From Terriglobia bacterium (lineage in GTDB: Bacteria > Acidobacteriota > Terriglobia > JAJPHL01 > JAPKYU01), in the NCBI GenBank assembly GCA_965206645.1, contig CBDBKE010000001.1:224001-288000 (forward strand): DNA of 64,000 nt, in the 5' to 3' direction. Each line of letters starts with the position of its first letter. Position 1 is the stretch's first letter. Made by a program: the position numbers and the translations under genes. Positions 38,413-56,387 of this stretch are shown here, one piece after another. The notes under the pieces were generated by a model. That model saw nothing but the letters and a program-made list of their open reading frames with translations. It did not search any database and was not told the DNA's origin.

Positions 38413-38487
<75 letters not shown>

Positions 38488-38550: not shown

Positions 38551-38625
<75 letters not shown>

Positions 38626-41265: not shown

Positions 41266-41523
41266 CCTACCTCCTTTTCACCAGCAGCGCCGGATAGGTC
41301 TCCCCTAACGGGCTAGTGTTTACCTATGTTCCAAGCCTGGAGGGTGAGTGGTGTTCTTTGACTCGCGCCTACCATCGAGAATTTCAGGCCAGCCACTTCG
41401 TGTCAGGCCTGCTTCATATACCGAGCAAGAATCATTTTCCCAACGTAAGGGACTCTCTTGTTGTGGTATACGTTGTCAAGATAGTTATTCTCGCTGGCTC
41501 GCAGGAGAGTCCGGGTAGGGTTC

Positions 41524-41838
41524 ATGGAAAAGCGGCGCCATCCGAGGTTCCCGGTCGAGATCCCAGTCCGTTGCGAATTCGGGGACCATGCCCGGCAATT
41601 CCGGGTGGTGAATATATCGCGTTTCGGCATGCTGGTGAAGGGCATCGAGCTGCCGCAGGTGGGCACGTTAGTGACGATGCGATTCTCGCTGGCCGGATCG
41701 GAGGAGACGGAAATGACGGCGGTAGTGCGCCACCACGTACATGGCGGCGAGGTGGAATTCATCGGGGTGGAATTCATCGAGGTGCTGCAGGAGCAGCAGA
41801 TACAGCTGATCGATTACTTGGATCGGCTGGCAACTTAG
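41524..41838 (+). CDS. PilZ domain protein
   Basis: RRHPRF and NISRFG motifs (RxxxR and D/NxSxxG). Confidence 0.85.
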   Translation: MEKRRHPRFPVEIPVRCEFGDHARQFRVVNISRFGMLVKGIELPQVGTLVTMRFSLAGSEETEMTAVVRHHVHGGEVEFIGVEFIEVLQEQQIQLIDYLDRLAT

Positions 41839-41874
41839 GAAGGCAAACCGCCGTGGCGATCGCGCTCGCGCACC

Positions 41875-42021
41875 CGAGTCCCGGCCGGCCCCGGCGTCGG
41901 CGCTGGTCGCGTAGCGCACGAGGGACACGCGGTTGACGCCGGGCTGCCGAGCGGCAGTCAGCATGGCAATGACCGGCCCGTAGCCGCACATAGCAAACGA
42001 CGGACACCTGATCAATTCCAC
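41875..42021 (-). pseudogene. AmmeMemoRadiSam protein B (MEMO1) C-terminal fragment
   Basis: MCGYGPVIAMLTAA...LVRYATSAD. Confidence 0.6.
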
Positions 42022-42183
42022 ACATCCCTCAAAGTGTCACTGGCCTGAGGTGCCGTCCCCCACCCGCAAGCCATGCTGAAGGGACGCAGTATAGACGCGG
42101 GGAGGTTTGTTCTCACGGGGACACCTCGGTAGGATAGAATTCCACAGGGGACTGAAGCGGCAACCCCATAAAATCAGGAGCAA

Positions 42184-43128
42184 ATGATGCGTGCAATCAT
42201 TCATCCCCTCACTCTCTTGGTAGTTTGCCTGGCTGTCGTCTCGCCGAGGGGTGCAGCCGAAGATGTTGCTGGCAGTGCGGACTACCCGGACATCGGCCGG
42301 TTTGCAGATTCGGCCATCAAGTCCTACAAGGTCGAGAACTACGGCAAGACTGTGCTGGCCACGGGGCCGGTGCGGTCCGCCAGGGATGCTAAGAAGACGG
42401 CCCGGAGGGTCGAGGGCAAGATCACTCGGATTCTATACCGCGTGCCTCCGGGCGTGTCGGCGCTCGAGGTGTTCCGAAATTTCCAGGCGAGAGTCCGTGA
42501 AGCGGGCTATGAATCGATCTTCTCGGGCGGACCGGGCGACATTCGTCCCTACGATTTCAAGTACAAGCACCCGGTGGAAATTCTCGATAAGATCTCGATC
42601 AGCAATGAGATTCATTATCTATCTGCAAAGAAGAGTTCGGGCGCCGGAGAGATTTATCTGTCGGTGCTGGTCAGTCCGCACAGCGGCGGTGACGGACAGC
42701 GGGTGCGCGTGATCGCAGCCGAGACCAAGACGATGGAAATGCAGATGACCGACGCGGAAAAGATGCAGCTCGACATTGGAGCGACCGGGAAGGTGGTGCT
42801 TTACGGTATCTATTTCGATCATGACCGGGCGAGCATCAAGCCGGAGTCCAAGGCGACGCTGGATGAGATCGCCAAGCTCCGCGGCTCGCAGTCGTCGCTG
42901 AAGCTCATTGTGGTCGGGCACACCGATAATTCCGGTCGTTTCGACTACAACATGGATCTTTCCCAGCGCCGGGCCCGAGCTGTCGCGGACGCACTCATCG
43001 CAAAGTATGGTGTTGCGCGAAATCGCCTGCGGAGCGAAGGCGTGGGTTACCTTGCCCCGGCAGCCAGTAATGACACTGACCAGGGGCGTACCCTCAATCG
43101 TCGCGTGGAGCTGGTCAAAGATCGCTAG
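42184..43128 (+). CDS. OmpA-family peptidoglycan-binding exported protein
   Basis: GIYFD, VVGHTD, LSQRRA and NRRVELV motifs. Confidence 0.9.
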   Translation: MMRAIIHPLTLLVVCLAVVSPRGAAEDVAGSADYPDIGRFADSAIKSYKVENYGKTVLATGPVRSARDAKKTARRVEGKITRILYRVPPGVSALEVFRNFQARVREAGYESIFSGGPGDIRPYDFKYKHPVEILDKISISNEIHYLSAKKSSGAGEIYLSVLVSPHSGGDGQRVRVIAAETKTMEMQMTDAEKMQLDIGATGKVVLYGIYFDHDRASIKPESKATLDEIAKLRGSQSSLKLIVVGHTDNSGRFDYNMDLSQRRARAVADALIAKYGVARNRLRSEGVGYLAPAASNDTDQGRTLNRRVELVKDR

Positions 43129-43329
43129 TCTGGCCCGCACCCCTCGCCGACCGGGGCACCTGATCGAACAAGCATGGAGGCGGAAATCGGCCCGTTCCTG
43201 TCGATACGTGCTGGGAGGCTAATATGTTCTTATCTTCCAGCCCGGATCGATGCGCGAGCTGCCGCCCCACGAGCCTGTTCTTCCCATGACGCCAAGCCTC
43301 ATACTTGACCTTCCCGCTCTTTTCCAACA

Positions 43330-43437
43330 AAAGGTATACGCTGGCTGGTAGTGGAACTCCCTGTCGAACTTTCCGCATACACTCGCTGGTAGCCCTCTGC
43401 CAGAAGACCCTTGAGAAGCTTTTAGGCTCCGAGAAGC
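43330..43437 (-). pseudogene. Possible AraC HTH C-terminal fragment cut by IS
   Basis: GFSEPKSFSRVF abuts the IS end. Confidence 0.3.
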
Positions 43438-43504
43438 CGACCTGACCGGCACTTTTTGTACCAAGTGGAAAGAGAGAGAATCCACTTGAGGAGGAAGTGA
43501 GGTC

Positions 43505-43783
43505 ATGCCGACAAGGAGTTACAAGCCGGAGCAGATTGTAGCGGTGCCACGGCAGATAGAAGTGCAGATGGGGAACGGGAAGACTGCGCCCCAAGCCTGC
43601 AAAGAAGCTGGAATCCACACCCAAACCTACTACCGGTGGCGGAAGGAATACGGCGGGCTGAAGGTGGTGCAGGCAAAACGGCTAAAGGAGTTGGAGAAGG
43701 AAAACACGCGGCTGAAGCGGTTGGTAGCGGAGCTTTCTCTGGAGAAGCAGGTACTGCGGGATGTGGCACAGGGAAACTTCTGA
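43505..43783 (+). CDS. IS3 transposase OrfA
   Basis: Nearly identical to 2552-2830. Confidence 0.9.
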   Translation: MPTRSYKPEQIVAVPRQIEVQMGNGKTAPQACKEAGIHTQTYYRWRKEYGGLKVVQAKRLKELEKENTRLKRLVAELSLEKQVLRDVAQGNF

Positions 43784-44637
43784 GCCCTGAGCGGCGGCGT
43801 TGTGCGGTGGAGCGTGCGTGGGAGCAACACGGGTTGTCGGAACGGCATGCCTGCCGGCTGCTGGGGCAATGGCGAGGGACACAACGATACGAGCCGATTC
43901 ATCGGGTGGACGAGGATGCTCTGACCCGAGCGATCATTGCCCTGGGAGCGAAGTACGGGCGATATGGCTACCGGAGGATCACAGCGTTGCTGCGGAGTGC
44001 GGGCTGGGAAGTGGGCAAGGACCGGGTGCAGCGGATTTGGCGGCGGGAAGGGCTGAAAGTGCCGCAAAAACAAAGGCCGCGAGGACGGCTGTGGCTGAAC
44101 GACGGTTCCTGTGTACGACTGAGGCCGGAGCGACCGAACCACGTGTGGAGCTACGACTTCATGAGTGCCAGAACGCACGAGGGGAGAACGCTGCGGCTGC
44201 TGACCTTGCTGGATGAGTACACGCGGGAATGCCTGGCGATCCGGGTGGAGCGGAGGATGGGCAGCCAACAAATCATTGAGGCGTTGTCGGACGTGATGTT
44301 GTGGCGAGGGATACCGGAACAGATTCGATCCGACAATGGTCCCGAGTTCATCGCCAAACAACTGCGCCAGTGGTTGGCAAATCTAGGGACCGGGGCACTG
44401 TACATCGAACCGGGCAGTCCCTGGGAGAACGGGTACTGCGAGAGTTTCAATGGGAAACTGCGGGACGAATGCCTGAATGGAGAGATCTTCTACTCGTTGA
44501 AGGAGGCGCAGGTAGTGATTGAGCAGTGGAGAGTGCAATACAACACGGTGCGGCCGCACTCGGCACTGGGCTACAGGCCCCCGGCGCCGGGGGCCTATAG
44601 AGTCTGTGTGAAAACCGCTCTTGCGAGTCACGTATAA
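43780..44637 (+). CDS. IS3 transposase OrfB, C-terminal tail replaced by IS1182 sequence
   Basis: WSYDF, SDNGPEF and ENGYCESFNG motifs. Confidence 0.88.
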   Translation: MSPERRRCAVERAWEQHGLSERHACRLLGQWRGTQRYEPIHRVDEDALTRAIIALGAKYGRYGYRRITALLRSAGWEVGKDRVQRIWRREGLKVPQKQRPRGRLWLNDGSCVRLRPERPNHVWSYDFMSARTHEGRTLRLLTLLDEYTRECLAIRVERRMGSQQIIEALSDVMLWRGIPEQIRSDNGPEFIAKQLRQWLANLGTGALYIEPGSPWENGYCESFNGKLRDECLNGEIFYSLKEAQVVIEQWRVQYNTVRPHSALGYRPPAPGAYRVCVKTALASHV

Positions 44638-45993
44638 TGCGCCTTAAGGGGGCGCGATGAAATTCTTGACCTACAACCCGGAGCAAGCGTATCTGCTACC
44701 GCCCAGCGTGCGGGAGGTGCTGGGAGAAGATCACATCTGTTTTTTTGTGCACCAAGTCGTGGAGCGGCTGGAACTGAGTGCGTTTGAGCAGGGCTACGTG
44801 GAAGAAGGCCGCCCGGCCTATCATCCGGCGCTGTTGCTGAAGGTGTGGCTGTATGCCTACGCGCTGGGCGTGACCTCGGCCCGCCGTCTGGAACAGCGGG
44901 TGCGGGAGGACCTGGCGTTCCGTTATCTGGCGGCCGGAGCGGGGCCGGACTTTTGGACGCTGAACCAGTTTCGGACGCGGCACGCCCGTGCCCTGAACGA
45001 TCTGTTCACACAGGTGGTGGAGTTGGCGCGGTCGCTGGGGATGGGGCGGCTGGGACACGTGGCCATGGACTCGACGCGGGTGGCGGCCAACGCCTCGCAG
45101 GACCGGGTGGAGACGGTGGCCAAGTTGAGGGCAGAGCGAGCCAAAATTCGGCGGCAGATTCGTCGCTGGCAGAAACAATGTGACACGCAGTCCTGCGAGG
45201 AAGCGGCTGGCCAGCAACTGAGCGGCAAGCAGATGGCAGCGCTGGAGAAGCGGCTGGAAGAAATCCCGCGATGCCTGGAGCGGTTGCGCAAAAGCGGGCT
45301 GAAGCGGCGTTCGGAAACCGATCCCGACAGCCGGTTTTTGCGCGACCGCAAGGGATTCACGCTGGGTTACACGGCGGAGGTGGCGGTCAGCGAAGATCAT
45401 CTGATTGTCGAGCAGCACGTGGGGCAAAACGCCACCGACAACGCGACGCTGGTCCCTCTGGTGGAGGCGGTCGAGCGGCGCTGCCGGGAACGCCCGCAGA
45501 AGGTCAGCGCCGACAGCGGCTTCTTTTGCTTGGAGACCATCGTGGAACTGGCCCAGCGTGGCCTGGACGTCTATGTGCCCGACTCGAACTTGGCGCGGGA
45601 ACTGAACCGAGGCCAACGCGCGCCCGGAGCACCTGCTGTACGGCATCCGGAACATCGGCGAATGCGACGCAAGCTGCGCGACCCGGCCGGCCGGGCGGTT
45701 TATCAGCGGCGCAAGGCGATCGTGGAACCAGTGATCGGGGTTTTGAAAGAACAGCGTGGAATGCGGCAGTTCCGGCGGCGGGGCCTGGAGAAGGTCGCGG
45801 TGGAGTTCGCGCTGGCCGCAACGGCCTTCAACCTCACCCGCCTGTGGCGCAACAAACCGAAGCTAAATCAGGAAGGCTAGTTCAGCAGACTCCCGGACCG
45901 GCGACTCGGCGAAGATCGAAACACCAGAATTCTGGAGCGAATCATGATCCCTTTTGATTTCCAGCCAGCTAAACCGAGTTTCCACACAGGCTC
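44600..45993 (+). mobile_element. IS1182-family element
   Basis: Ends GAGTCTGTGTG and CACACAGGCTC; 4-bp TSD TATA at 44596-44599 and 45994-45997. Confidence 0.92.
44657..45880 (+). CDS. IS1182 transposase
   Basis: GRPAYHP, PDFWTL..FR, DSTRV.ANAS, ADSGF and RK.IVEPVIG motifs. Confidence 0.93.
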   Translation: MKFLTYNPEQAYLLPPSVREVLGEDHICFFVHQVVERLELSAFEQGYVEEGRPAYHPALLLKVWLYAYALGVTSARRLEQRVREDLAFRYLAAGAGPDFWTLNQFRTRHARALNDLFTQVVELARSLGMGRLGHVAMDSTRVAANASQDRVETVAKLRAERAKIRRQIRRWQKQCDTQSCEEAAGQQLSGKQMAALEKRLEEIPRCLERLRKSGLKRRSETDPDSRFLRDRKGFTLGYTAEVAVSEDHLIVEQHVGQNATDNATLVPLVEAVERRCRERPQKVSADSGFFCLETIVELAQRGLDVYVPDSNLARELNRGQRAPGAPAVRHPEHRRMRRKLRDPAGRAVYQRRKAIVEPVIGVLKEQRGMRQFRRRGLEKVAVEFALAATAFNLTRLWRNKPKLNQEG

Positions 45994-46372
45994 TATAGCC
46001 CTTTTCTACTACCAAAACCGGTTTCAAGGCCCCAGGCTATGATGTAGACTCTCACTACTGTTGGTACAAAAACTCGGTCTGGTCAGCACCACGCGTCCGT
46101 TACAGCGCTGCACGAGTCGAAAACCCGGCCTGGCGGTCGAGAGAGCGGGCCGTGGGTTCCGAACCGAAGGGGGGGAACTCTCCAGCGAGGAACACAGCGA
46201 ACTGAACTTGTATCGCCACTGCTCTCGCCGTGTTTTGCTTGGTCCTCTCGACGGACGACGCCTCAGCCTTTTAGGTTTTGTACTGGGTTTGGCTGCCGCA
46301 ACACCGCATGGGGGCAGTTCCCTGCCGACTCAGCGGTCCAATCCACCTAGGAGCTAGAATGGCTCTAGTTCG

Positions 46373-49300
46373 ATGACCACCCACTCAGGCCAGGCCACGG
46401 CGGTCCTCGCCGAAAAGCCCTCCGTTGCACGAGACATTGCCCAAGTCCTGGGCGCCCACCGGCGTGGCGAGGGGTTCCAGCACGGCAACGGATACATCGT
46501 GACGTGGGCCATCGGTCACCTTGTCTCGCTCGCCGAACCCCACGAAATCAATCCTGCCTGGCGTCGTTGGCGGCGGGATCTGCTCCCGCTGTTGCCTCGC
46601 GAGTGGCCCCTGGTCGTCTACGAAGAGACTCGTGATCAGTTCGAGGTCGTCCGAAGAATCCTCCGCAGCAACAAAGTCGCCCGGATCGTGGCGGCGACCG
46701 ATGCAGGACGGGAGGGCGAGCTGATCTTCCGCTACATCTACAAGTTGGTCGGATGCACGAAACCGGTGGAGCGCCTCTGGATTTCCTCGCTGACATCCGA
46801 GGCAATTCGGCAAGGCTTCCGCACGCTGAAGCCTGCCCGAGCATACGACTGTCTCGCCGATGCGGCCCGAGCGCGCAGCCGGGCCGACTGGCTCGTCGGC
46901 ATGAACCTCTCCCGCCTCTACAGTCTGGACTGCCAGCAACAGCTGTCAGTCGGACGGGTACAGACACCGACCCTGGCCATGGTGGTCGAGCGGGAGTTGG
47001 CGATTCGCTCGTTCGTGCCCGAGGACTATCTGCAGGTCGTCGCGACCTTCCAACCCTTGGAGGGTGCCGGCGACGAGCCAGGAGAGCAATCGGATGGCTC
47101 CGCGCAAAAGCTGTCTTTCAAGGGAACATACTTCCGGCCGGCTGAGAACCCAGCGTCGGTCGGCAAAGCTGAGCTTCTCGACAAGGGCCCATCCCAGCGT
47201 GGCACGCGGCTGCCGGCCGACGGTGAGGAAGCCCGCCAGATCGTCGAGCGGGCCCAAACGGGAGAGGCTCACATCGCGTCCATCGAATGCGAGACGAAGC
47301 GGCTGGCGCCTCCCTTGCTCTATGACCTGACGGAGCTGCAGCGCCACGCCAATCGACTCTACGGCTTCAGCGCGAAGCGGACCTTGGATCTCGCGCAGAA
47401 CCTCTACGAGAAGCACAAGCTCCTCACGTACCCTCGCACCAACAGTCGTCATCTCTCCCAGGACGTGGCAGCAACACTGGACAAAGTCGTACGGGCGATC
47501 GCCGGGCCCTATCAAGCGTCACTTGCTCCGGGAACCGGCAGGCGCCCCCTGGGTCGGCGGTTCGTCGATGACGCCAAGGTCACCGACCACCACGCGATCA
47601 TCCCCACCGGCGTTGCGGGATCACCGCCGCGCGGCGATGAAGCCAAGATCTATGACCTGGTGTGCCGTCGTCTGCTCGGTGCTTGGCACCAGGACCACGT
47701 CTGGGCTGTCACCACCATCATCACCACCGTCACTTCGCCTGCCGAGCCAGAGCAATCGGACCGCGTGGTCGACCGCTACTGCAGCCCGGGCATGTCGGTC
47801 GAACAAGAAGGCTGGAAAGTGCTGGACCTGGCGCCCCCAAGTAAAGCCGCCAAACGAAAACCGACAGCGGAAGAGATCCGAGACGACTCCTCGTCAAAGA
47901 ACTCCCCCTCCGACGGAGAAGGCGCACAGAGAATCCCACCGGGACTGGCACAGGGCCAGCCACAACGAGTCTCCCACGTCGAAGCGCTTTCCAAGAAGAC
48001 ACGGCCGCCGAAGCGATTCACCGAGGCCACGCTGCTGACGGCGATGGAGTCTGCCGGGAAGACGCTCGAAGAAAAAGAGCTTTCCGACGCCATGAAAGAC
48101 CGCGGGTTGGGCACGGCGGCGACCCGCGCGACGATCATCGAGACAGTGTTGCGAAGGGAATACCTGCGGCGTAAGGGCAACTCCCTCGAGGCGACCGAGA
48201 AAGGGATTCACTTGATTGACGTCGTGCACGCTGCGGTCAAGAGTCCGGCCATGACCGGCGAGTGGGAAGCGCAACTGCGCGAGATCGAACGCGGCCAGGG
48301 CCAATTCCAGAAGTTCATGCAGGGGATCGAGGAGTACCTTCGCCACGTTGTCGGCAAGAAGCCGGTGCAAGGACAGCCCGAGCCCTACGCGGAGCATCAG
48401 TCATCCCTTCGGCCGACGGCGGAGTCGCTCGGATCTCGGCCGACCCGTTCCCTTGAGCAAACAGAACGGCGCTCTCTGGCTGCGAGTGCGGGGGCTGGCC
48501 CACAAGGGGCGCTCTCTCACGCCCCGGCAGAGGTGGATCGCGGTCCGCCCACAGCTCGTGTGTCTACGGGCACGGACGGTGCGGAACAGGGTGGGTCCGG
48601 GCTCGGCGAGCTGCTGCGGTCCGGCTTCGGCTTCGAGTCATTCCGTCCCTATCAGGAGGAGGTCTGCGAGGCAGCCGCCGCCGGGCGTGACGTGCTACTG
48701 GTGATGCCCACCGGCGCCGGCAAATCGCTCTGCTACCAACTCCCTGGCCTGGCGCGCGGGGGCGTGACGCTGGTCATCAGCCCCCTGATCGCGCTCATGG
48801 AAGATCAGGTTGCCAAGCTCCAACAAACGGGCCTTCGTGCGGAGCGGATCCACTCTGGGCGCGACCGGGGGCTCAGCCGCGAGGTCTGTTTCCGTTACCT
48901 CGAGGGGAAACTCGATTTTCTCTTCATCGCCCCGGAACGGTTGAATGTGACAGGCTTCCCGGAGATGCTCGCCAAGCGGACTCCCACGCTCATCGCGATC
49001 GACGAGGCACACTGTATCTCACACTGGGGTCACGATTTCCGTCCCGAGTATCGCATGTTGGGACAGCGGCTCGCCCCGCTGCGTCCCGCTCCCGTCATCG
49101 CACTGACCGCGACCGCGACCCCGCTGGTGCAAGACGACATCATCGAACAGCTCGGGCTCAACAACCCGTTATGCGGGATCCACGGATTCCGGCGCGACAA
49201 CATCGCCATCGAGGTCATCGAGAGGACGCCGAGTCAACGCCCTCCAGCAGTCAAGGAGCTGCTCGCGGAGCCAGTGCAGCGCCCCGCCATCATCTATGCG

Positions 49301-50644
49301 CCCACGCGCAAGTCCGCCGAAGAGCTCGCGCTGGAGTTAGCACCACAGTTCTCGACAGCGGCCTACCACGCGGGAATGATGCCGGAGACCCGCGACAAGG
49401 TCCAAACAGCGTTTCTGTCGGGCACACACGAAGTCATCGTCGCCACGATCGCCTTCGGGATGGGGATCGACAAGCCCAACATCCGCACGGTCGTGCATAC
49501 CGGCCTACCGGGCAGCGTGGAAGCCTACTATCAGGAAATCGGCCGGGCCGGACGCGACGGCAAGCCGTCCCGGGCGGTGCTGATGTATTCCTGGGCCGAC
49601 CGCAAGACGCACGAGTTCTTCCAAGGGCGCGACTATCCCGCTGTGGAAGAACTGGAGCGGATCTTCGAGAAACTGTCCAACGAACCCGAGGCCCGCCAGA
49701 AACTCAAGCAGCAGGTTCGAATGGACATGATCGTCTTCGAGAAAGCGCTCGAAAAACTCTGGATTCACGAGGGAGCGCTGATCGATCCCGAAGAAAACGT
49801 GCGGCGCGGTCATGACCGCTGGAGGGCACCCTATATCGCGCAACGCGAGTACAAGCTCAAGCAGCTTGACCGCATCGTCCGCTTTGCCTCCTCACATGAG
49901 TGTCGCATGCGCGACCTCGTCCGACACTTCGGCGACCAAGCGGACTCGCAACAGCCGTGCGGCACCTGTGACATTTGCGCTCCGGATTCTTGTGTCGTGC
50001 AGCGGTACCGGCAGCCCAGCGAAGAAGAAAACGTCAGTCTCGATCAGATCGTTGAAGCCGTCAAGGCGCAAGAGGGGCTGGCCCTCGGCCGGTTGCACGA
50101 ACAAGTCGCCAAAGCGACCCCGCTGGAACGAAAGACTTTCGAGAAGCTGCTGGGTGGGTTGGCCCGGGCAGGGCTCGTCAAGACAATCGCTGCTGCCTTC
50201 GATAAGAACGGGCGGAGGATCGAATATCGCCGCGTTTTTCTTACCCAGGAGGGCCGGCAGCTCACTGGCTCGGCCGCACCCCTCGTCTCGTTGCCGGTCG
50301 AGGCTCCCCCTGCCCCCAAGAAGAAAAAGAAGAAACGCACGGCGAAGCCCGGAAAGAAAGAGCCACGACCGGAGAAGCACAGGCCCACTGTTCAGCCCAT
50401 CGAAGCCGACGACGGACTCCCGGATCCACAACTGGTCGAGCAGCTGCGAGCCTGGCGTCTTGAGAAAGCCCGTGCGCAGCGCATCCCAGCTTTCCGCGTC
50501 TTCCCGGACCGAACCTTAAACTCCATCGCGCAATTGCGCCCCACCAACCAGGAAGAGCTCTTACAAGTGCCAGGCATCGGGCCCCGTCTCGCTCGTAAAT
50601 ACGGTCGGAAGATTCTCTCGCTCGTAGCCGGAAACGACAAGTGA
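46373..50644 (+). CDS. DNA topoisomerase III - RecQ helicase - HRDC fusion
   Basis: Type IA motifs AEKPSVA, ATDAGREGE, GRVQTPTL and TYPRT. RecQ motifs PTGAGKS, DEAH, WGHDFRP, QEIGRAGRDG and CGTCDIC. C-terminal HRDC domain. Confidence 0.93.
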   Translation: MTTHSGQATAVLAEKPSVARDIAQVLGAHRRGEGFQHGNGYIVTWAIGHLVSLAEPHEINPAWRRWRRDLLPLLPREWPLVVYEETRDQFEVVRRILRSNKVARIVAATDAGREGELIFRYIYKLVGCTKPVERLWISSLTSEAIRQGFRTLKPARAYDCLADAARARSRADWLVGMNLSRLYSLDCQQQLSVGRVQTPTLAMVVERELAIRSFVPEDYLQVVATFQPLEGAGDEPGEQSDGSAQKLSFKGTYFRPAENPASVGKAELLDKGPSQRGTRLPADGEEARQIVERAQTGEAHIASIECETKRLAPPLLYDLTELQRHANRLYGFSAKRTLDLAQNLYEKHKLLTYPRTNSRHLSQDVAATLDKVVRAIAGPYQASLAPGTGRRPLGRRFVDDAKVTDHHAIIPTGVAGSPPRGDEAKIYDLVCRRLLGAWHQDHVWAVTTIITTVTSPAEPEQSDRVVDRYCSPGMSVEQEGWKVLDLAPPSKAAKRKPTAEEIRDDSSSKNSPSDGEGAQRIPPGLAQGQPQRVSHVEALSKKTRPPKRFTEATLLTAMESAGKTLEEKELSDAMKDRGLGTAATRATIIETVLRREYLRRKGNSLEATEKGIHLIDVVHAAVKSPAMTGEWEAQLREIERGQGQFQKFMQGIEEYLRHVVGKKPVQGQPEPYAEHQSSLRPTAESLGSRPTRSLEQTERRSLAASAGAGPQGALSHAPAEVDRGPPTARVSTGTDGAEQGGSGLGELLRSGFGFESFRPYQEEVCEAAAAGRDVLLVMPTGAGKSLCYQLPGLARGGVTLVISPLIALMEDQVAKLQQTGLRAERIHSGRDRGLSREVCFRYLEGKLDFLFIAPERLNVTGFPEMLAKRTPTLIAIDEAHCISHWGHDFRPEYRMLGQRLAPLRPAPVIALTATATPLVQDDIIEQLGLNNPLCGIHGFRRDNIAIEVIERTPSQRPPAVKELLAEPVQRPAIIYAPTRKSAEELALELAPQFSTAAYHAGMMPETRDKVQTAFLSGTHEVIVATIAFGMGIDKPNIRTVVHTGLPGSVEAYYQEIGRAGRDGKPSRAVLMYSWADRKTHEFFQGRDYPAVEELERIFEKLSNEPEARQKLKQQVRMDMIVFEKALEKLWIHEGALIDPEENVRRGHDRWRAPYIAQREYKLKQLDRIVRFASSHECRMRDLVRHFGDQADSQQPCGTCDICAPDSCVVQRYRQPSEEENVSLDQIVEAVKAQEGLALGRLHEQVAKATPLERKTFEKLLGGLARAGLVKTIAAAFDKNGRRIEYRRVFLTQEGRQLTGSAAPLVSLPVEAPPAPKKKKKKRTAKPGKKEPRPEKHRPTVQPIEADDGLPDPQLVEQLRAWRLEKARAQRIPAFRVFPDRTLNSIAQLRPTNQEELLQVPGIGPRLARKYGRKILSLVAGNDK

Positions 50645-50678
50645 CCTTGGGCAGAACGCGTGCTGCCGGGGGGCGTTA

Positions 50679-51267
50679 GAGTCTGTGTGGAAACTCGGTT
50701 TAGCTGGCTGGAAATCAAAAGAGATCATGATCCGCTCCAGAATTCTGGTGTTTCGATCTTCGCCGAGTCGCCGGTCCGGGAGTCTGCCGAACTAGCCTTC
50801 CTGATCTAGCTTCGGTTTGTTGCGCCACAGGCGGGTGAGGTTGAAGGCCGTTGCGGCCAGCGCGAACTCCACCGCGACCTTCCCCAGGCCCCGCCGCCGG
50901 AACTGCCGCATTCCACGCTGTTCTTTCAAAACCCCGATCACTGGTTCCACGATCGCCTTGCGCCGCTGATAAACCGCCCGCCCGGCCGGGTCGCGCAGCT
51001 TGCGTCGCATTCGCCGGTGTTCCGGATGCCGTACAGCAGGTGCTCCGGGCGCGCGTTGGCCTCGGTTCAGTTCCCGCGCCAAGTTCGAGTCGGGCACATA
51101 GACGTCCAGGCCACGCTGGGCCAGTTCCACGATGGTCTCCAAGCAAAAGAAGCCGCTGTCGGCGCTGACCTTCTGCGGGCGTTCCCGGCAGCGTCGCTCG
51201 ACCGCCTCCACCAGAGGGACCAGCGTCGCGTTGTCGGTGGCGTTTTGCCCCACGCGCTGCTCGACAA
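50679..51267 (-). mobile_element. 3' part of a second IS1182 copy, truncated at an att junction
   Basis: Near-identical reverse complement of about 45405-45993. Confidence 0.9.
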
Positions 51268-51305
51268 GCAGGAGGTCGGAGGTTCGAGCCCTCCACCGCT
51301 CACCA
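51264..51305 (+). other. att site: 3' half of a tRNA-Val(TAC)-like gene
   Basis: ACAA GCAGG AGGTC GGAGG-TTCGAGC-CCTCC ACCGCTC ACCA, next to the integrase 3' end. Arm-like repeats AACTGT(A/C)AA at 51361-51380. Confidence 0.85.
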
Positions 51306-51390
51306 TTTAACTTACTTGTTTTCATCACCCGTCTGCCTTGCCTCTCGTTGCCGAAGACGGAACTGTAAAGAAACTGTCAAAAAACTGGCT

Positions 51391-52563
51391 CTAGATGGCC
51401 AGCGCTGTAAAGGAACTCGCGCCGTGCTCGTTCGCCTGTCGGTCGAGCTTGGACAGCGCTTCCCGCATCATGTTGAGCTTCGCGTGGCTGTAGCGCTTGA
51501 ACACCTGCGAATCGCCTTGTCGGAGCATCTGCGTCACGAAATGATCCGCCACGCCCCCGGCGCTGAGCCGGGTCGCAAACGTGTGGCGCAGCTCGTATAG
51601 CGAAAAATGCGGCAGCCCGGCGCGCTGGAGCGTCCGGTTCCACAGCTTTTGCACCGTCGTGATGTGCGGCTTGCTCAAGTCCATCCGCGAGCTCGGGAAC
51701 AGGTAGTCGGAATCGCCGCTCTGCTTCATCTGTGAGGCGAACGCTTGACGGGCTCTGTCGGTCATCGGCATGTCCGCGATACCATTCACCGTCTTGGAAT
51801 CCGGCAGATGCACGATCCCGTTCTCCAGATCGACCTGTCCCTTTCGCATCGGGATCAACTCCCGATAGGGCCGCAGCCCCATCTCCACCATGATCGCGAT
51901 GATGTTGCGCAGGTACAGGGGCGCGCAGGCTTCCAGCCAGGCCTGCTTCGAGGCGGTCAGATAGTGCGGCTTGCGCGTCGTGCCCGCCAACGCCACCGGA
52001 AACTCCACCCCATTACAGGGATTGACCGCCAGCCGCCGCTTCTTCACCGCCACGTTCAGGATACGTCTCAGGACGCGAAACTCCTGATGCACGGTGGCAG
52101 GTTTGAGCCTGCCGCGAAGTTGCAGCCCCAACTTGGTATGCACCCGCTTGCCTGTATTCAATCTGGTCATCAGGTACGATTCGATATCTTCCGGTGTGAT
52201 GTCCGATAGTCTGTTCTTGCCGAACCGGGGCCTCAGGAACTTCAACGCGCCGAGGTTCTGCACGTGAGTCTTCTCGCTCCGGAAGGGTGGTTTGGATCGG
52301 TTCTCAAGGAACCAGTCCGCCCACTCGTTGAACCTGATCTCCCCGCCCGGCGCGGCGCTCGGCAGCAACCCCTCGTCGCGAGCCACCAACCGTTTGCGCA
52401 TCACCTTCTCGGCTTCCCCTTTTTCTCTCTGCCCTGTCGAGGTCTGTCTCCACCTCCCGTTCTGCTCTCGATAGCTCATCCACCAGACGCGTGAATTGCA
52501 CCGCAGGTACAGGCTACCAGCGGTATTTCTGGGTCTACCTGTCTTGTTCATCGATTCCTCCAT
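51391..52563 (-). CDS. Tyrosine integrase
   Basis: MGLRP, DSKT, YELRHTFATR and KRYS motifs; N-terminal arm-binding-like domain. Confidence 0.93.
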   Translation of the reverse strand: MEESMNKTGRPRNTAGSLYLRCNSRVWWMSYREQNGRWRQTSTGQREKGEAEKVMRKRLVARDEGLLPSAAPGGEIRFNEWADWFLENRSKPPFRSEKTHVQNLGALKFLRPRFGKNRLSDITPEDIESYLMTRLNTGKRVHTKLGLQLRGRLKPATVHQEFRVLRRILNVAVKKRRLAVNPCNGVEFPVALAGTTRKPHYLTASKQAWLEACAPLYLRNIIAIMVEMGLRPYRELIPMRKGQVDLENGIVHLPDSKTVNGIADMPMTDRARQAFASQMKQSGDSDYLFPSSRMDLSKPHITTVQKLWNRTLQRAGLPHFSLYELRHTFATRLSAGGVADHFVTQMLRQGDSQVFKRYSHAKLNMMREALSKLDRQANEHGASSFTALAI

Positions 52564-52753
52564 TCACATGAAATTGCTGGCGCCACTCGGCTAGCTCCGA
52601 CAATCGGAAGCGGATCGAGCGGCCCATCATGCGGTAATGGGGAATCTGCTTTCGCTCGACGTAAGCATACACCAGCGAGGGGCTGACGCCCAGGAAGCGG
52701 GCGGCGGCCTTCACCGTGATCGGGGCTTCCCTCGCTTCTGTGTCCAGGCTCAT
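52535..52753 (-). CDS. Excisionase-like HTH_17 protein
   Basis: TVKAAARFLGVSPSLVY...IP..R.GRSIRF. Confidence 0.88.
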   Translation of the reverse strand: MSLDTEAREAPITVKAAARFLGVSPSLVYAYVERKQIPHYRMMGRSIRFRLSELAEWRQQFHVNGGIDEQDR

Positions 52754-52968
52754 CCTTCCTCCTCTACTCTCCACGCCGGACCGAGCGCTCCGTCAGATCC
52801 ACCTTCCGCCCCGGATCGGCGAGTCCGGCGGCTTGCGTCTTCGGGAAAGACGCCGTACTCCTGGGCGATCCAGGCCGGGACTTCCAGCGTCTCGTCACCG
52901 TCCCGGCCGAGCTCCAGGGCGAAGTCCCTGATGGTATTCACCCGTATGATTTTTTCTTCATCCCTCAT
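52750..52968 (-). CDS. Small hypothetical protein
   Basis: Overlaps both neighbours in the operon. Confidence 0.55.
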   Translation of the reverse strand: MRDEEKIIRVNTIRDFALELGRDGDETLEVPAWIAQEYGVFPEDASRRTRRSGAEGGSDGALGPAWRVEEEG

Positions 52969-53923
52969 TGTGTTCCCTCCAGATCGGCTTGATGATCCAG
53001 TGGTTCTGTGGCGCGTCGTAGCCCTGGACGAGCAGCGCTTCCTCCACGAAGCGGCGTCCCTCTCGCCGTGTCATGTGAATCACCATGGCGATGCCGTCCA
53101 CCACGCCCCGGCAGGTCACCTCCCAGGGAAGCTCACCGCCGCCCTGCATGGCGCAACTGGCGATGCGCGACAAGGCCGACTCGGCGTTGTTGGCGTGTAC
53201 GGTGGTGAGGGAGCCGCCGTGTCCGGTGTTGAGGGCTTGCAATAGATCAGCGGCCTCGCCGCCCCGGACCTCGCCCACCACGATGTGATCCGGGCGGTGA
53301 CGCAAGGCGTGGCGGACTAAATCACGGATCGTCACCGCTCCGGTTGCCAGTCCGCGAGCCTCGAAGCGGACGCAATTAGAGCGCTCAATGCGAAGCTCAA
53401 GGGTGTCCTCGATGGCGACGATGCGCTCGTCGTTGGGAAGCAATTCAATAAGTGCGTTAAGCAGGGTGGTCTTGCCCGATCCAGTGCCGCCTGAAACCAG
53501 GATGTTTCGCCGGGAGCGCAACACCCGCTCGGCTTCCGCTCGCACGTCTTCGGGGAGTGCGCCTTGCTTCACGAGATCATCCGCCGAGAACGCCCGCTTG
53601 CCAAAGCGCCGCATGGTGATCGCCACTTGAGGACTCGCGGGCGGAACACAGATGGCAACCCGCGAGCCGTCGTCCAGGCGCGCATCGACAATCGGCGAGC
53701 TCGCCGGATCCAAGCCCAAAGGACGGGCAATGTGGATGGCCGCCCGCAATAGGGCCGATTCGTCCAGGTCCGGCGCGTCATGTGCCGTCAACCGCCCGGC
53801 CCGCTCGACCCAGACATTGCCGGGGCCGTTAATCATGATCTCGCTGACTTCGGAATCTTCCAGGGCGCTTTCCAATCCCGGTAGAAATGGTTTCAGGTGT
53901 TCCAGTCCACTCGCGGTGCTCAT
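52958..53923 (-). CDS. CpaF/VirB11-family secretion ATPase
   Basis: SEIMING, GGTGSGKTT, IEDTLEL, LRHRPD.IVVGEVRG and NTGH..TTVH motifs. Confidence 0.93.
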   Translation of the reverse strand: MSTASGLEHLKPFLPGLESALEDSEVSEIMINGPGNVWVERAGRLTAHDAPDLDESALLRAAIHIARPLGLDPASSPIVDARLDDGSRVAICVPPASPQVAITMRRFGKRAFSADDLVKQGALPEDVRAEAERVLRSRRNILVSGGTGSGKTTLLNALIELLPNDERIVAIEDTLELRIERSNCVRFEARGLATGAVTIRDLVRHALRHRPDHIVVGEVRGGEAADLLQALNTGHGGSLTTVHANNAESALSRIASCAMQGGGELPWEVTCRGVVDGIAMVIHMTRREGRRFVEEALLVQGYDAPQNHWIIKPIWREHNEG

Positions 53924-56049
53924 AATTGACCCGCCGCTTTCGCTCTCCAATACGAATGTGCGAGGGGCAGATAGTGAGGCTTGAGGTAGACCCGGCGCGG
54001 TTCAATCGACTGCGACCCGTCATAGGGCAGACAGATCGCTTGACAGTTCGAGAGCAGCGTGAAGTCTCGCGGGTGAAACACGGCCTCGCGTTGCTCCCGG
54101 AAAGACTTGGTCGCGCCGATGCTGCCCCCGCCTCCACCGGCGCGGCCCGACAGCGGGGAGACTTCCGCCCGCTTGGAGGTCTCGCTGATGGTGTAGGATC
54201 CCTTGATCTTCGCCACCTGCCCGCACATTTCGCTTGCAATCTTGGCGCTGGCGTCGTCGCTGAGAGACAGGAAAATCCGTGTGCGGAGCGTCTGCAACAG
54301 CGACCGCCATGCTTCCGAGCTTCCCAACACGGAGCGGAGCGAGGAAATGGATTGCGTGGCGACAATCGGGATGCAGCGGCATTGCCGGGTCAGCGCAAAG
54401 GATTTCTCATCGCCCGATGGATCGTCCTCACCCACCGAAGCGAAGGCTTGATATTCGTCACAGATAAAGACGGCAGGCCGGAAATAGACCCCCGGCGACT
54501 CCTTCATCTTGGTCGGGCGCATGAGAAGCGCCTGTAGCCAGGCGTTCTTGAGCATCACGCCCACGGCGCGGGCCAGCGCCGGGTTCGATCCGGCGGGCAT
54601 GTTCAAGGCCAGCACCTTGCCCCTTTCGATCAATTCATAGAGCGGGGGCAGGTGTCGCGGCCCGGCGATTCGTTCCTCTTCGACCGGCGGGATCGACGTG
54701 GGCGCGGGTTTGTCTCCTTCCCCGCCGTCCGGCTTCTTGTTCAGTTCCTGGGCTTCTTCCCCGGCCCGCTTCGCGGCCCTGGCCTGAACTGCAATGGCTT
54801 GCGGATCGTCGGGGACTTCCGGCGGCCCCGGACAAAACACCTTTGCCACATCCGGCATATCGAACATGGCAAGGAACACCGAAACCCCCTCCACAATCGA
54901 GGACTTCACTTTGTTGTCCAGCGTTTGCCAGTCGTTGACAAACCAGCGCTTCACCGCCTCCACTCGTTCTCTCACTTCGTCGCCGGGTCCGGGGTCCCAA
55001 ACCACCCGGTAGGTCAGCTTGAGCTCGTCCAGTTTGTTGAGCATGGGACGGGAGTAGGCGGCCCGCACTTCTTCCGTTCCCGGTATGTCTTTCCATAGCC
55101 ATTCAGCCAAGGTCATGATGTGGGCTTGGTATACGACCTCTGGAATGAAAACCGTGCCTCTGTTCAACTCGTCGCTCCACGCTTCGGCTTGCTCGATCTT
55201 GGCAGCGAAAAGGTCCGGGTCGATGGCGCAGCGGTAGACCTGCTGCAACGTCACCCACCGTTCCGGGAAGATTCGGTGAAGCTCAATGATCCAGCGGACC
55301 AGATTGGTATAGGCTTGCTGCCAGAACGGTTCCTTGCCCTTGCCGAATAGCTGGTTGAGAAGGCTCGAAACGGTGTAGGCCAGCGAGTAGGAATCGAGCC
55401 ACCAGGCCGAGAGCGGGTTCCATTGCCAGCGGTCCTTCATGCCAAGCTCGATGTAGTCTTTTCCCCGGCCTGCCTCGGTCAGGATTTGGCGGATGTCGTG
55501 ACAGAAATCTCCCTTGACTTCGAGCATGAGCGCTGCCGCCCGCATCTGTGGATTCGCCGCTTGCCAGCCGAGAAGTTGCTTAGCGAAGGGGTGCATACAA
55601 GCCGAGGTCTTGCCGGACCCGACGGCCCCGAAGATCGCCACGCCGGTATACAGCCCGCGCTCCGGGATGGTGAGCCAGGAGGGATTGAAAATCTCCCGCG
55701 CCTCGACCGGATGATGGACCTCCCCGATGACGATGGCCGGGGCCGTTTGCCGGGGTGAAAGCGGCCAGGTCGGGAGCGCCCCAAAGGGCGCAAAATCCCG
55801 CCGCCGCGATTCCAGCCAGACCTTCCAGACGGACAAGAGAACGAGGCCCGCGAGCATGACGGCGAAGAAAGGCGAAGCGTAGTACCAGAGCATCACCCAG
55901 CCGTAGAAGTTCGGGGTGTGGTAGTCCATCAGATCGAGCAAGGGACTATCCCCAAGCATGGGGAAGGGACGGTGGACAAAGCTCCACAGGGCGTACCCCA
56001 GCGCGCCGAAAAACAGAAGGATGTGAGGAATGAAGCGCCTCCATTTCAT
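53920..56049 (-). CDS. Type IV coupling protein (TraD/VirD4-like)
   Basis: Two N-terminal TM helices; GAVGSGKT, FICDEYQ and VATQSISSL motifs. Confidence 0.88.
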   Translation of the reverse strand: MKWRRFIPHILLFFGALGYALWSFVHRPFPMLGDSPLLDLMDYHTPNFYGWVMLWYYASPFFAVMLAGLVLLSVWKVWLESRRRDFAPFGALPTWPLSPRQTAPAIVIGEVHHPVEAREIFNPSWLTIPERGLYTGVAIFGAVGSGKTSACMHPFAKQLLGWQAANPQMRAAALMLEVKGDFCHDIRQILTEAGRGKDYIELGMKDRWQWNPLSAWWLDSYSLAYTVSSLLNQLFGKGKEPFWQQAYTNLVRWIIELHRIFPERWVTLQQVYRCAIDPDLFAAKIEQAEAWSDELNRGTVFIPEVVYQAHIMTLAEWLWKDIPGTEEVRAAYSRPMLNKLDELKLTYRVVWDPGPGDEVRERVEAVKRWFVNDWQTLDNKVKSSIVEGVSVFLAMFDMPDVAKVFCPGPPEVPDDPQAIAVQARAAKRAGEEAQELNKKPDGGEGDKPAPTSIPPVEEERIAGPRHLPPLYELIERGKVLALNMPAGSNPALARAVGVMLKNAWLQALLMRPTKMKESPGVYFRPAVFICDEYQAFASVGEDDPSGDEKSFALTRQCRCIPIVATQSISSLRSVLGSSEAWRSLLQTLRTRIFLSLSDDASAKIASEMCGQVAKIKGSYTISETSKRAEVSPLSGRAGGGGGSIGATKSFREQREAVFHPRDFTLLSNCQAICLPYDGSQSIEPRRVYLKPHYLPLAHSYWRAKAAGQL

Positions 56050-56115
56050 GGGTCCGTCTGCCTTCCGTCAGCGCCCCCGCTGGGGGCTGCTCCGAGCCTT
56101 CCCGCAGGGATCAAT

Positions 56116-56219
56116 GAGGACGATAGCGACCCCATGGGGCAGCGATAGGGGCATGTGACACAGTGCCTCTATCGGGGCCACATGACCCCCCGGTTTTCGG
56201 GGGGGTCGCTATCGTCCTC
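56116..56219. repeat. 18-bp perfect inverted repeat enclosing nested hairpins
   Basis: GAGGACGATAGCGACCCC (56116-56133) and GGGGTCGCTATCGTCCTC (56202-56219). Confidence 0.85.
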
Positions 56220-56387
56220 CCCGATTCTGCTCCTTCGGCGCAGCGGAGGCCGAGTGACAAGGGAGAGCCACAGAAGAATGAGAGAGATACGGAAATATGG
56301 AGTTGGGACACCCTTTGTCGAAATCGTGTGACATCCCCCCCTCTGTGACTGTCACATTTAACACGCGGCCCCCAGTCACACGAAAAA

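Follow-up and report, generated by a model that had tools for sequence, protein, structure and literature searches.

The window analysed here, a 64,000-nt stretch of DNA from a Terriglobia bacterium, contains a topoisomerase III-RecQ-HRDC fusion gene flanked by insertion sequences (Table 1). The gene is one open reading frame with zero internal stops. Pfam searches of the 1423-aa protein identified, all above cut-off, Toprim (aa 10-139, 39.8 bits), Topoisom_bac (aa 159-650, 337.5 bits), DEAD (aa 758-916), Helicase_C (aa 960-1063), RecQ_Zn_bind (aa 1157-1202) and HRDC (aa 1353-1418, 79.8 bits). Among NCBIfam models, the fusion protein exceeded the cut-offs of NF005829 'DNA topoisomerase 3' (640.5 bits against 597) and TIGR00614 recQ_fam (396.5 against 219.8) and fell short of that of the recQ equivalog model (490.6 against 640.2). 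These matches agree with an earlier, sequence-only reading of the locus, which had described a single 1423-aa frame holding a TopB core, a RecQ with a Zn motif and HRDC. A mini-ORF precedes the gene in all four close copies, and here its stop shares letters with the ATG of the fusion gene (ATGA overlap).

Table 1 Features of the fusion gene and its surroundings (window coordinates; aa, fusion protein numbering)
Feature	Position	Strand	Details
IS element A	43439..44600	+	transposase ORF 43636-44637: HTH_21, rve, rve_3 (Pfam)
IS element B	44589..46001	+	transposase ORF 44657-45880
Left inverted arm	45401-46001		last 601 nt of IS element B
Transferred and duplicated unit	46085..50678	+	gene + 288 nt upstream + 34 nt downstream
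Mini-ORF	46360..46377	+	five codons (ATG..TGA), behind GGAG; read from sequence
Topo III-RecQ-HRDC fusion gene	46373..50644	+	1423 aa
Type IA topoisomerase core	46400..48355	+	aa 10-661
Toprim catalytic residues			E14-K15, D110/E114/E116 (alignment)
Catalytic Y353	47429-47431	+	aligned to E. coli Topo III
N357	47441-47443	+	R355 nearby in same motif
Linker 1	48356..48604	+	aa 662-744, P/G/A/S-rich
RecQ helicase core	48605..49609	+	aa 745-1079
RecQ core motifs			Walker A 778-785, DEAH 877-880, motif VI 1054-1063
Clade-specific 81-aa insert	49610..49852	+	aa 1080-1160, helicase core/Zn module junction
RecQ Zn-binding module	49853..49987	+	aa 1161-1205; C1177, C1196, C1199, C1202
Possible winged-helix region	49988..50272	+	aa 1206-1300, sub-threshold WH hints
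Linker 2	50273..50422	+	aa 1301-1350, Lys/Arg/Pro/Ala-rich
HRDC domain	50423..50632	+	aa 1351-1420
Right inverted arm	50671..51271	-	truncated, inverted copy of IS element B 3' part

Alignment of the topoisomerase core with E. coli Topo III (E about 8e-82) indicated that Y353, in the previously reported motif YPRTNS, is the catalytic tyrosine. A lysine after the Toprim glutamate is described as a mark of Topo III (PMC10969213). The 16-aa loop of Topo III, here at about aa 560-575, was present in the fused proteins and TopB, and was a gap in the TopA of the same genome. Since the protein has this lysine, this loop and a score above the NF005829 cut-off, its topoisomerase half was assigned to the Topo III type. 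Throughout the subfamily, Listeria TopB included, the Toprim DxD has Gly in place of its second Asp; unlike E. coli Topo III, the core is a Firmicutes-type enzyme (Toprim 'DAG'). Whether the Asp-to-Asn change in YPRTNS is conserved in homologues had been raised as a question. It is not: of 121 fused proteins, 119 have Asp at position 357, and only the query and its 99% twin have Asn. This position also varies among stand-alone Topo III enzymes (Asn in 5/13), so D357N, a private change at a naturally variable site, says little about activity. E14, K15, D110, E114, E116, Y353 and R355 were invariant in all aligned fused proteins (121/121), as were K784, DEAH, motif VI and the four Zn-module cysteines; every catalytic motif is therefore retained in both halves. 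About 95 aa around the catalytic tyrosine are absent from one fused homologue (G270), which, like N357 and the Toprim Gly, counts against the reading preferred below.

The RecQ core aligned with E. coli RecQ 1oyw (E 3.3e-95), and the HRDC domain matched the solved RecQ HRDC domains 2ma1, 2rhf and 1wud. The helicase half differs from E. coli RecQ in that it falls in a separate clade, carries an 81-aa insert and has no detectable RQC. In profile alignments the insert is a gap in canonical RecQ, and among fused proteins its length is near-constant (81-86 aa; majority fraction 0.68). The WH-like region of the sequence-only reading (here aa ~1206-1300) was not confirmed, as Pfam RQC models matched none of the fused proteins scanned (0/8, E up to 10) and winged-helix hints, in 4/8, were sub-threshold. 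Linker 1, earlier estimated at ~85 aa, measures 83 aa. It is 55% P/G/A/S and unconserved (column majority fraction 0.11), with a length of 31-168 aa (median 80) across 121 fused proteins. A long unconserved linker suits independent action of the halves no less than their coupling. The Lys-rich linker before HRDC was also confirmed; it contains KKKKKK, and its length is 36-122 aa across the fused family.

The same architecture was found in all of the 120 best database relatives listed (1306-1533 aa), with Topoisom_bac, DEAD, Helicase_C, RecQ_Zn_bind and HRDC in 120/120 and Toprim in 118/120. Of the 150 best representatives of clusters at 50% identity, 56 contained both halves, and in every one of these (56/56) the topoisomerase preceded RecQ. 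Fused frames occurred in 8/401 genomes sampled from the host's phylum (Acidobacteriota) and in 2/201 genomes of a Planctomycetota sample. The query ORF is one intact representative of a large and as yet unnamed family, spanning at least these two phyla, in which a flexible, variable linker joins the Topo III core to the RecQ half. Similar fusions had been mentioned as annotations in other bacteria, and they indeed exist only as annotations, under the name 'DNA topoisomerase 3'; full-text literature searches returned no description or characterisation of a fused topo III-RecQ family, which seems never to have been studied.

All 29 fused topoisomerase halves formed one clade (SH-aLRT 100), separate from 13 stand-alone TopB; the RecQ halves shared a clade with topo-less relatives nested among fused forms. 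Subclades of the topoisomerase tree reappeared in the RecQ tree and persisted down to about 33-40% identity, and the two halves have diversified together since a fusion that arose once. G169, G289, G264, G266, G186, G196 and G373 gave TopA-level matches only. A number of lineages thus retain the RecQ half but have no Topo III-type gene, so RecQ of this clade works in the absence of the topoisomerase, which counts against the reading preferred below. The simplest reading of the trees is one old fusion with later losses.

As previously noted, the gene sits between IS elements: transposase ORFs lie on its left, and it is enclosed by 601-nt inverted arms that are 98% complementary. IS element A has 66 copies in the same genome (at least 90% length and at least 90% identity). 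IS element B, with a transposase ORF matching DUF772, DDE_Tnp_1 and DDE_Tnp_1_6 (Pfam), has 15 near-full copies. A second copy of the unit, 99.78% identical, lies at G000:C4:1123470-1128085; both 1423-aa frames are intact and they differ at 4 residues. In four runs, each from a different study (X1, X2, X15 and X17), contigs bridge linker 1, show no joint or indel within the ORF, and all stop at 46085 and 50678; those of X15 and X17, which are RNA libraries, may derive from DNA. In the genomes L024 and L025, rpoB-region identity is only 73-78%, yet the gene is 97-98% identical over 46284/46353-50678 and its flanks are unrelated; it was recently exchanged with distantly related Acidobacteriota. 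The dN/dS among the four close copies was 0.27-0.45. The copy in the window is single-gene mobile cargo between IS arms. Gene duplication, recent transfer and the nested topo-less RecQ relatives were absent from the sequence-only reading.

We consider it probable (about 0.6) that this intact member of the fusion family, duplicated and transferred as cargo, acts as a tethered RecQ-driven decatenase or dissolvase. The function is one that we infer from reactions known for separate RecQ and Topo III. Stimulation of Topo III decatenation by E. coli RecQ is reported in PMC5714178, and both PMC7245102 and PMC8185306 call the cooperation of RecQ with Topo III universal. The RecQ half would bind and unwind duplex or branched DNA in the 3'->5' direction, dependent on ATP, thereby exposing single strands beside the tethered Topo III, which would cut one strand via Y353 and pass another through the gate. 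Overall, the fusion would catenate and decatenate duplex DNA with stimulation by ATP, unlink hemicatenanes and converging forks, and dissolve double Holliday junctions to give non-crossovers. The covalent tether, rather than SSB or RMI1-type bridging, would keep the partner at high local concentration.

E. coli RecQ and Topo III (with SSB) represent the same two enzyme families but are two proteins, whereas in the fusion a tether of 83 aa unites them in a single polypeptide. The proposed dissolution activity is modelled on the Sgs1-Top3-Rmi1 and BLM-TOP3A-RMI1/2 dissolvasome, likewise described as an HRDC-bearing RecQ-family helicase with Topo III. Those complexes are non-covalent and require RMI1 as bridge and gate modulator, and the tails of eukaryotic Top3 bear Zn fingers; nothing resembling RMI1 was seen in the fusion. 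In Listeria monocytogenes (NZ_LR134400.1), recQ and topB lie on one strand, 24 nt apart. Listeria TopB has the LAEKPS, ATDAGREGE and TYPRTDS motifs common to the fusion family, but it is only about 40% identical to the fusion, and the pair consists of two genes with recQ first, opposite to the domain order of the fusion.

The halves could also act independently, with the gene only ensuring co-expression, equal dose and co-transfer. The unconserved linker 1 of widely varying length and the nested topo-less RecQ relatives are consistent with this, as is the movement of the gene between genomes as a single unit, which would favour one-gene packaging as such. We regard such uncoupled action as rather unlikely, since the single clade of topoisomerase halves, the subclades shared over deep divergence and the uniform domain order argue against it, and RecQ as a separate protein is already known to stimulate Topo III in vitro (PMC5714178).

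It is improbable that, within a functional family, this particular copy is merely carried along in an IS-ridden genome, hypomorphic or in decay, with neither of the host's two copies needed. Both copies carry the private D357N beside the catalytic tyrosine and already differ from each other, dN/dS is as given above, the host retains a canonical RecQ, and its genome is IS-laden. Against this, both frames are intact, Asn occurs naturally at position 357 in stand-alone TopB, all other catalytic residues are retained, and the host genome has no other Topo III-type gene.

A role in defence or in a mobile element, as a DpdF-like helicase of a Dpd-type system or as a conjugation/ICE accessory topoisomerase, is very unlikely. 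The PADLOC profile PDLC02865 'DpdF' (1499 positions), which spans the fused architecture, matched aa 8-1335 with 1755.6 bits, but the curated NCBIfam DpdF model reached only 192.6 against a cut-off of 550; DpdF is itself described simply as a RecQ-clade helicase (bioRxiv 10.1101/2024.02.29.582594). A tyrosine integrase, a VirB11-like ATPase and a VirD4/TraG-like protein are encoded downstream, yet an IS arm stands between the fusion gene and this ICE-like module. No TGT-like, ParB-like, further helicase or conjugation gene adjoined the fusion in 7 other genomes, in L024/L025 or at the C4 copy, and none of the 10 contexts examined contained neighbours typical of the dpd (7-deazaguanine) island. 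Conjugative plasmids often carry a stand-alone topB (among the 5000 best plasmid records, 4022 were conjugative), but no plasmid record covered at least 80% of the query.

Still less can be said for a machine like reverse gyrase, performing ATP-driven directional supercoiling in a rigid helicase-topoisomerase assembly. Reverse gyrase is likewise a natural covalent fusion of an SF2 helicase-like domain with topoisomerase IA, and is described as the only characterised one (PMC7245102, PMC8185306). As the sequence-only reading had stated, the fusion has the opposite domain order and a different helicase: the rgy model scored 95.6 against 471.7 bits, and the helicase, unlike that of reverse gyrase, is a complete RecQ that includes Zn and HRDC. 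In place of a rigid interface, the fusion has a long, variable, low-complexity and disordered connector. RecQ-Topo III cooperation is said to differ from reverse gyrase in PMC7245102, which also describes hyperthermophiles as having 'uniquely' fused these units; the present family occurs in MAGs named Acidobacteriota and Planctomycetota. Finally, an assembly or annotation artefact (two misjoined genes, or a sequencing error masking a stop) can, as far as contig evidence goes, be dismissed, for although linker 1 is low-complexity and GC-rich, no supporting evidence was found, and the sequence-only reading's counter-case of homologues that are always two genes, and of a stop or misjoin in the linker, is contradicted by the identical architecture of relatives from many assemblies, the two copies in this genome, intact fused copies in other genomes, on contigs of 6.8 Mb and 1.4 Mb, and the contigs of four runs crossing 48356-48604 without an indel.

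The host also encodes a canonical RecQ with RQC, so the fusion gene may be dispensable there. Elsewhere, the fusion was the sole RecQ-family match in 4/5 fused hosts checked and its neighbours in 7 other genomes were ordinary chromosomal genes, which suggests that in those lineages it may have a housekeeping role.

The gene at window positions 46373-50644 (+) is one frame of 1423 codons without an internal stop, and six Pfam domains scored above their gathering thresholds in its product. Among NCBIfam models, the N-terminal half exceeded the cut-offs of NF005829 'DNA topoisomerase 3' (640.5 vs 597) and TIGR01056 (542.8 vs 515.75), and the C-terminal half exceeded that of TIGR00614 recQ_fam (396.5 bits vs 219.8); the narrower recQ equivalog TIGR01389 was not reached (490.6 vs 640.2). 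The topoisomerase core aligned with the E. coli Topo III structure (E about 8e-82), the helicase core with the E. coli RecQ structure 1oyw (E 3.3e-95) and the HRDC domain with solved RecQ HRDC domains (2ma1 at E 4.9e-12). The frame and both model libraries bear out the uninterrupted 1423-aa product with topoisomerase, RecQ, Zn motif and HRDC described in the sequence-only reading; every testable point of that description held, with the exception of the 'WH-like' region, which may be a winged helix. Pfam RQC matched nowhere in the whole fused protein and in none of eight fused C-terminal pieces at E values up to 10; the canonical RecQ of the host does match it (81.4 bits). When the fused family was compared by profile with 7 canonical RecQ proteins (5 of them without RQC), the helicase core, Zn module and HRDC aligned and the WH region did not. 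The 81-aa insert preceding the Zn module was missing from canonical RecQ in the same comparison.

The best 120 relatives, taken from 7818 matches among 8000 scored candidates, were 1306-1533 aa long. Topoisom_bac, DEAD, Helicase_C, RecQ_Zn_bind and HRDC were present in all 120, and Toprim in 118; with regard to the domain-architecture check proposed earlier, these relatives share the fusion. Where these proteins were named, they were called only 'DNA topoisomerase 3/III' or plain 'topoisomerase', in keeping with the earlier remark on similar fusions as annotations, and the named records came from MAGs labelled Thermoanaerobaculia, Acidobacteriota or Bryobacteraceae. The window stretch, or part of it, was present in twenty public sequencing runs; runs X19 and X20 contain only 0.09-0.10 of its words and are no evidence of habitat. 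Contigs of four runs from four studies (X1, X2, X15 and X17) were compared with the window, and within the ORF they showed zero joints and zero indels. The linker, earlier named as the place where a stop or misjoin would count against the fusion, is crossed intact by contigs of all four. X15 and X17 are metatranscriptome libraries, in which the presence of a contig is no proof of transcription, and we attach no significance to the thin cover of X17 at 47169-47836. As far as contigs can show, an assembly artefact is ruled out by the architecture shared by 120/120 relatives together with these bridging contigs.

Features of the fused protein (aa), contigs bridging linker 1 (window 48356-48604) and genes of the neighbouring ICE-like module (window positions)
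Feature	Position	Strand	Family length	Basis or remark
Toprim	aa 10-139			Pfam
Topoisom_bac	aa 159-650			Pfam, 337.5 bits
Linker 1	aa 662-744		31-168 aa, median 80	55% P/G/A/S, column majority 0.11
DEAD	aa 758-916			Pfam
Helicase_C	aa 960-1063			Pfam
Insert before Zn module	aa 1080-1160		81-86 aa	conserved, majority 0.68
RecQ_Zn_bind	aa 1157-1202			Pfam, 38 bits
Linker 2	aa 1301-1350		36-122 aa	basic
HRDC	aa 1353-1418			Pfam, 79.8 bits
Run X1 contig	46085-49474			bridges linker 1
Run X2 contig	48071-48733			bridges linker 1
Run X15 contig	46803-49384			bridges linker 1
Run X17 contig	47825-50302			bridges linker 1
Tyrosine integrase	51391-52563	-		ICE-like module
VirB11/T2SSE-like ATPase	52958-53950	-		ICE-like module
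VirD4/TraG-like coupling protein	53920-56049	-		ICE-like module

Residue conservation was read over 121 aligned fused proteins. The residues E14-K15, D110, E114, E116 and HH 406-407 were invariant save for two N-terminal gaps, which account for the two proteins of the 121 without the Toprim Glu-Lys pair E14-K15. A Lys after the Toprim Glu is given as a Topo III mark in PMC10969213. Y353 and R355 (YxR) were invariant in 121/121 and align with TYPRSD of E. coli Topo III. The same held for the core residues of the SF2 motifs PTGAGKS 779-785 (Walker A, K784), DEAH 877-880 and QEIGRAGRDG 1054-1063 (motif VI), and for the Zn-module cysteines C1177, C1196, C1199 and C1202. The Toprim acidic cluster DxDxxG reads D110-A-G112-R-E114-G, with Gly replacing the second Asp; since this Gly also occurs in Listeria TopB and in every one of the 13 stand-alone TopB from the phylum sample, it represents a subfamily form. 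The fused proteins and TopB share a 16-aa segment (about aa 560-575) that falls in a gap of the host TopA and aligns with E. coli Topo III apart from a gap of one residue; we take it to be the 'decatenation loop' of domain IV, without counterpart in Topo I. A role of the decatenation loop is mentioned in PMC7587558.

The YPRTNS motif noted from the sequence was confirmed, with N357 in the window protein, and the question of whether this D-to-N change is conserved in homologues was answered in the negative: position 357 is D in 119/121 fused proteins, and N only in the window protein and its 99% twin. N is shared by the two host copies, and D is present in two Bryobacterales MAG loci with close copies (L024 and L025); the change is therefore private and recent. 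Among the 13 stand-alone TopB the equivalent residue is most often N (5), followed by D (4), S (2), A (1) and E (1), and N at this position is, judged by these alignments, tolerated in nature. No paper on the residue equivalent to position 357 was found in the full-text literature searched. In E. coli Topo I, Ala at the equivalent D323 is reported to leave activity.

The spread of the family was examined by comparing aa 560-1160 with 1.84 billion cluster representatives. Among the best 150, which were inspected, 56 hold both halves, always in the order topoisomerase then RecQ (17 of them end to end), and 94 hold RecQ alone; identity to the window protein goes down to about 33-40%. In the phylum sample of the host (401 genomes, with the unpublished G024, G049 and G152 included in the tallies), 33 genomes had a Topo III-type match above cut-off, and 7 of those had fused frames of at least 1348 aa (G000, the host, with G010, G029, G045, G095, G361 and G365). 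A further fused frame, the eighth, lies in genome G270 of this sample, where the match is split. A sample of 201 genomes from the phylum of the Planctomycetota MAG G404 contained the fused gene in 2 genomes and a stand-alone relative of the RecQ half in 4. Named records of the fusion come from Bryobacterales, Terriglobia and Planctomycetota MAGs.

Trees of both halves were built by quick IQ-TREE searches (LG+G4, SH-aLRT support only) with 29 fused rows: the window protein, 19 of 120 database proteins, hand-picked to span the identity range, and 9 proteins from loci. Loci L027 and L028, whose frames look broken, and the short G095 contig were excluded, and 13 stand-alone TopB, out of 26 unfused TopB-positive genomes, were added to the topoisomerase tree. 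All 29 fused topoisomerase halves formed one clade (support 100) apart from the 13 stand-alone TopB. In the RecQ tree, one clade (support 100, long stem of 1.33), distinct from canonical RecQ including that of the host, united the fused halves with 7 stand-alone, topoisomerase-less relatives (RecQ2). The RecQ2 proteins were scattered among the fused forms; forcing the fused RecQ rows together was 95.95 log-likelihood units worse (p-AU 8.7e-6, in an AU test run after tree inspection). The two trees agree in subclades. In genomes with stand-alone RecQ2, matches to the Topo III model reached no more than TopA level, and the N-terminal extensions of these proteins held no topoisomerase remnant. 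We read these trees as a probable single fusion event, followed by co-evolution of the halves and at least 3 later losses of the topoisomerase half. Locus L061 (G270:C104, 7744-11796) encodes a 1350-aa fused homologue in which about 34 residues replace window-protein aa 317-444, and which therefore is without the catalytic-Tyr domain; the remainder is kept at 50-59% identity. Either a naturally topoisomerase-dead variant or a fault in the assembly may explain this. The fused genes of L027 (Planctomycetota MAG) and L028 (Terriglobia MAG) look split over several frames in ORF picks, which may reflect frameshifts, pseudogenes or long-read errors.

The host genome is 97.9% complete, spans 4.41 Mb in 4 contigs and contains two fusion copies, one TopA-like gene and one canonical RecQ with RQC, and no stand-alone TopB was found in it. 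Window 46085-50701 corresponds to 1123470-1128085 of host contig C4 at 99.78%, and the two fusion proteins differ by 4 residues. As noted from the sequence, the window copy lies between IS elements: inverted 601-nt arms of one IS flank it (45401-46001 and 50671-51271, 98%). The arms and the second copy may point to composite-transposon-like IS cargo; the right arm, however, is truncated, the flanks of the C4 copy differ from those of the window, and no target duplication was readable. The DDE_Tnp_1-type IS adjoining the gene has 15 near-full genome copies, and an rve-type IS at window 43439-44600 has 66 near-full and 17 partial ones. The L024 and L025 copies are 97-98% identical at the nucleotide level, limited to 46284/46353-50678; their 8-kb flanks are unrelated to the window, transposases adjoin the gene there as well, and the rpoB regions of their genomes are 73-78% identical to that of the host. 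A near-identical gene with unrelated flanks and divergent rpoB shows that this one gene has recently been transferred horizontally between the host and the Bryobacterales MAGs, in either direction. Contigs ended at 46085 and 50678 in all four compared runs; upstream they most commonly continue into sequence matching the C4 flank, and downstream into sequence matching the L024 flank. The dN/dS values among the four close copies were 0.27-0.45.

Scans for promoters and terminators found no signal above the chance level. A GGAG followed by a five-codon mini-ORF (window 46350-46377), whose TGA overlaps the fusion ATG (ATGA), is enclosed by a CTAGA..TCTAG inverted repeat; all 4 close copies retain it, and it may have a role in coupling or controlling translation. 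The 8 kb at window 38001-46085 are duplicated at the start of contig C4 (1318-9400, 99.5%) and carry tRNA-Gly and tRNA-Cys (38413-38625), cyclase, TPR and OmpA-family genes and two IS elements. Downstream, window 51269-56388 holds an ICE-like module with 3 near-full and 6 partial genome copies at about 92% identity. On the 5' side of the C4 copy (L090, G000:C4:1112000-1131900, 2156-8615) we observed an S1/P1 nuclease, an MmeI-type restriction-modification enzyme, a catalase-peroxidase-like gene and IS fragments.

From the parts and their conservation, we infer a fit with a tethered RecQ and Topo III reaction, in which the helicase half would open duplex or branched DNA using ATP and the topoisomerase, kept close by the tether, would pass strands via a transient single-strand break. 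The flexible linker favours tethering over a rigid machine. Topo III decatenation is stimulated by RecQ in a reconstituted replication cycle (PMC5714178), and the RecQ-Topo III partnership is called universal and is said to differ in its working from reverse gyrase (PMC7245102, PMC8185306). The fusion is the sole RecQ-family gene in 4/5 fused hosts checked. Its neighbourhoods in 7 other genomes were ordinary and unconserved, except for htpG upstream in both genomes of one family. In Listeria monocytogenes NZ_LR134400.1 (L089, 2950-6899), separate recQ and topB genes follow each other on the same strand, 24 nt apart, in the opposite order to the domains of the window fusion; this record is filed as a 594-kb 'plasmid'. 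A link between the fusion and a lack of Topo IV was rejected: a single GyrA/ParC-type match is seen not only in the host but also in 2/4 other fused hosts and 5/5 unfused comparators. One such match was seen in the host and 7/9 other genomes, and a separate Topo IV was not found with that query in most.

The boldest reading, that the family is a self-contained single-chain 'dissolvasome', a portable genome-stability module captured and duplicated in an IS-rich host, is one to which we give a probability of about one in five. Its main rival is that the two halves act independently. The existence of topoisomerase-less RecQ relatives and the unconserved linker 1 speak for independent action. A function in Dpd defence (as DpdF) or conjugation was also considered. 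The PADLOC model PDLC02865 'DpdF' (1499 positions) covers aa 8-1335 of the fused protein with 1755.6 bits, and DpdF is a RecQ-clade helicase according to bioRxiv 10.1101/2024.02.29.582594. The curated DpdF model NF041063 scored 192.6 against a cut-off of 550, and neither dpd-like genes (at Pfam level) nor conjugation genes accompany the fused gene in any of ten contexts examined; DpdF identity is unlikely. Reverse gyrase was dismissed on the TIGR01054 rgy score (95.6 vs 471.7) and the domain order, topoisomerase then helicase.

No description of a bacterial Topo III-RecQ fusion was found in full-text literature, a corpus with subscription journals mostly outside it and supplements excluded; supplementary alignments of such reviews (e.g. 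Figure S1 of PMC10969213) may list the architecture. The word 'RecQ' does not occur in a review of type IA diversity from 2024 (PMC10969213), which names reverse gyrase as the sole enzyme using a helicase domain; the Significance section of PMC7245102 states that hyperthermophiles 'uniquely' fused helicase and topoisomerase units. Public annotation and one HMM library show the Topo III-RecQ architecture, which is therefore unrecognised rather than unseen. The labels 'DNA topoisomerase 3' and PADLOC 'DpdF' both hide it, and automated defence annotation with PDLC02865 could mislabel the family as DpdF.

Cooperation of RecQ and Topo III is conserved from bacteria to humans (BLM-TOP3A), and studies of the hand-off of DNA from helicase to topoisomerase still rely on loosely associated partners or on the mechanistically different reverse gyrase. 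Single-molecule and structural studies of this hand-off would gain a simple system in a natural, mesophilic RecQ-Topo III on one chain, with natural variation in a tether of 31-168 aa and with topoisomerase-less relatives and the homologue without the Tyr domain as controls. The family corrects the view of such fusions as confined to hyperthermophiles, as printed in the Significance section of PMC7245102. The fused gene is also a probable case of a genome-maintenance enzyme that travels between distant lineages as IS cargo of one gene. If the dissolvasome reading were true, neither SSB- nor RMI1-type bridging would be needed: the tether would let one chain unlink hemicatenanes and double Holliday junctions into non-crossovers, and the whole activity, held in one gene, would travel between distant bacteria. 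By suppressing IS-mediated crossovers and unlinking chromosomes, it would pay in a host that carries 66 copies of one IS and in which no Topo IV-type gene was found.
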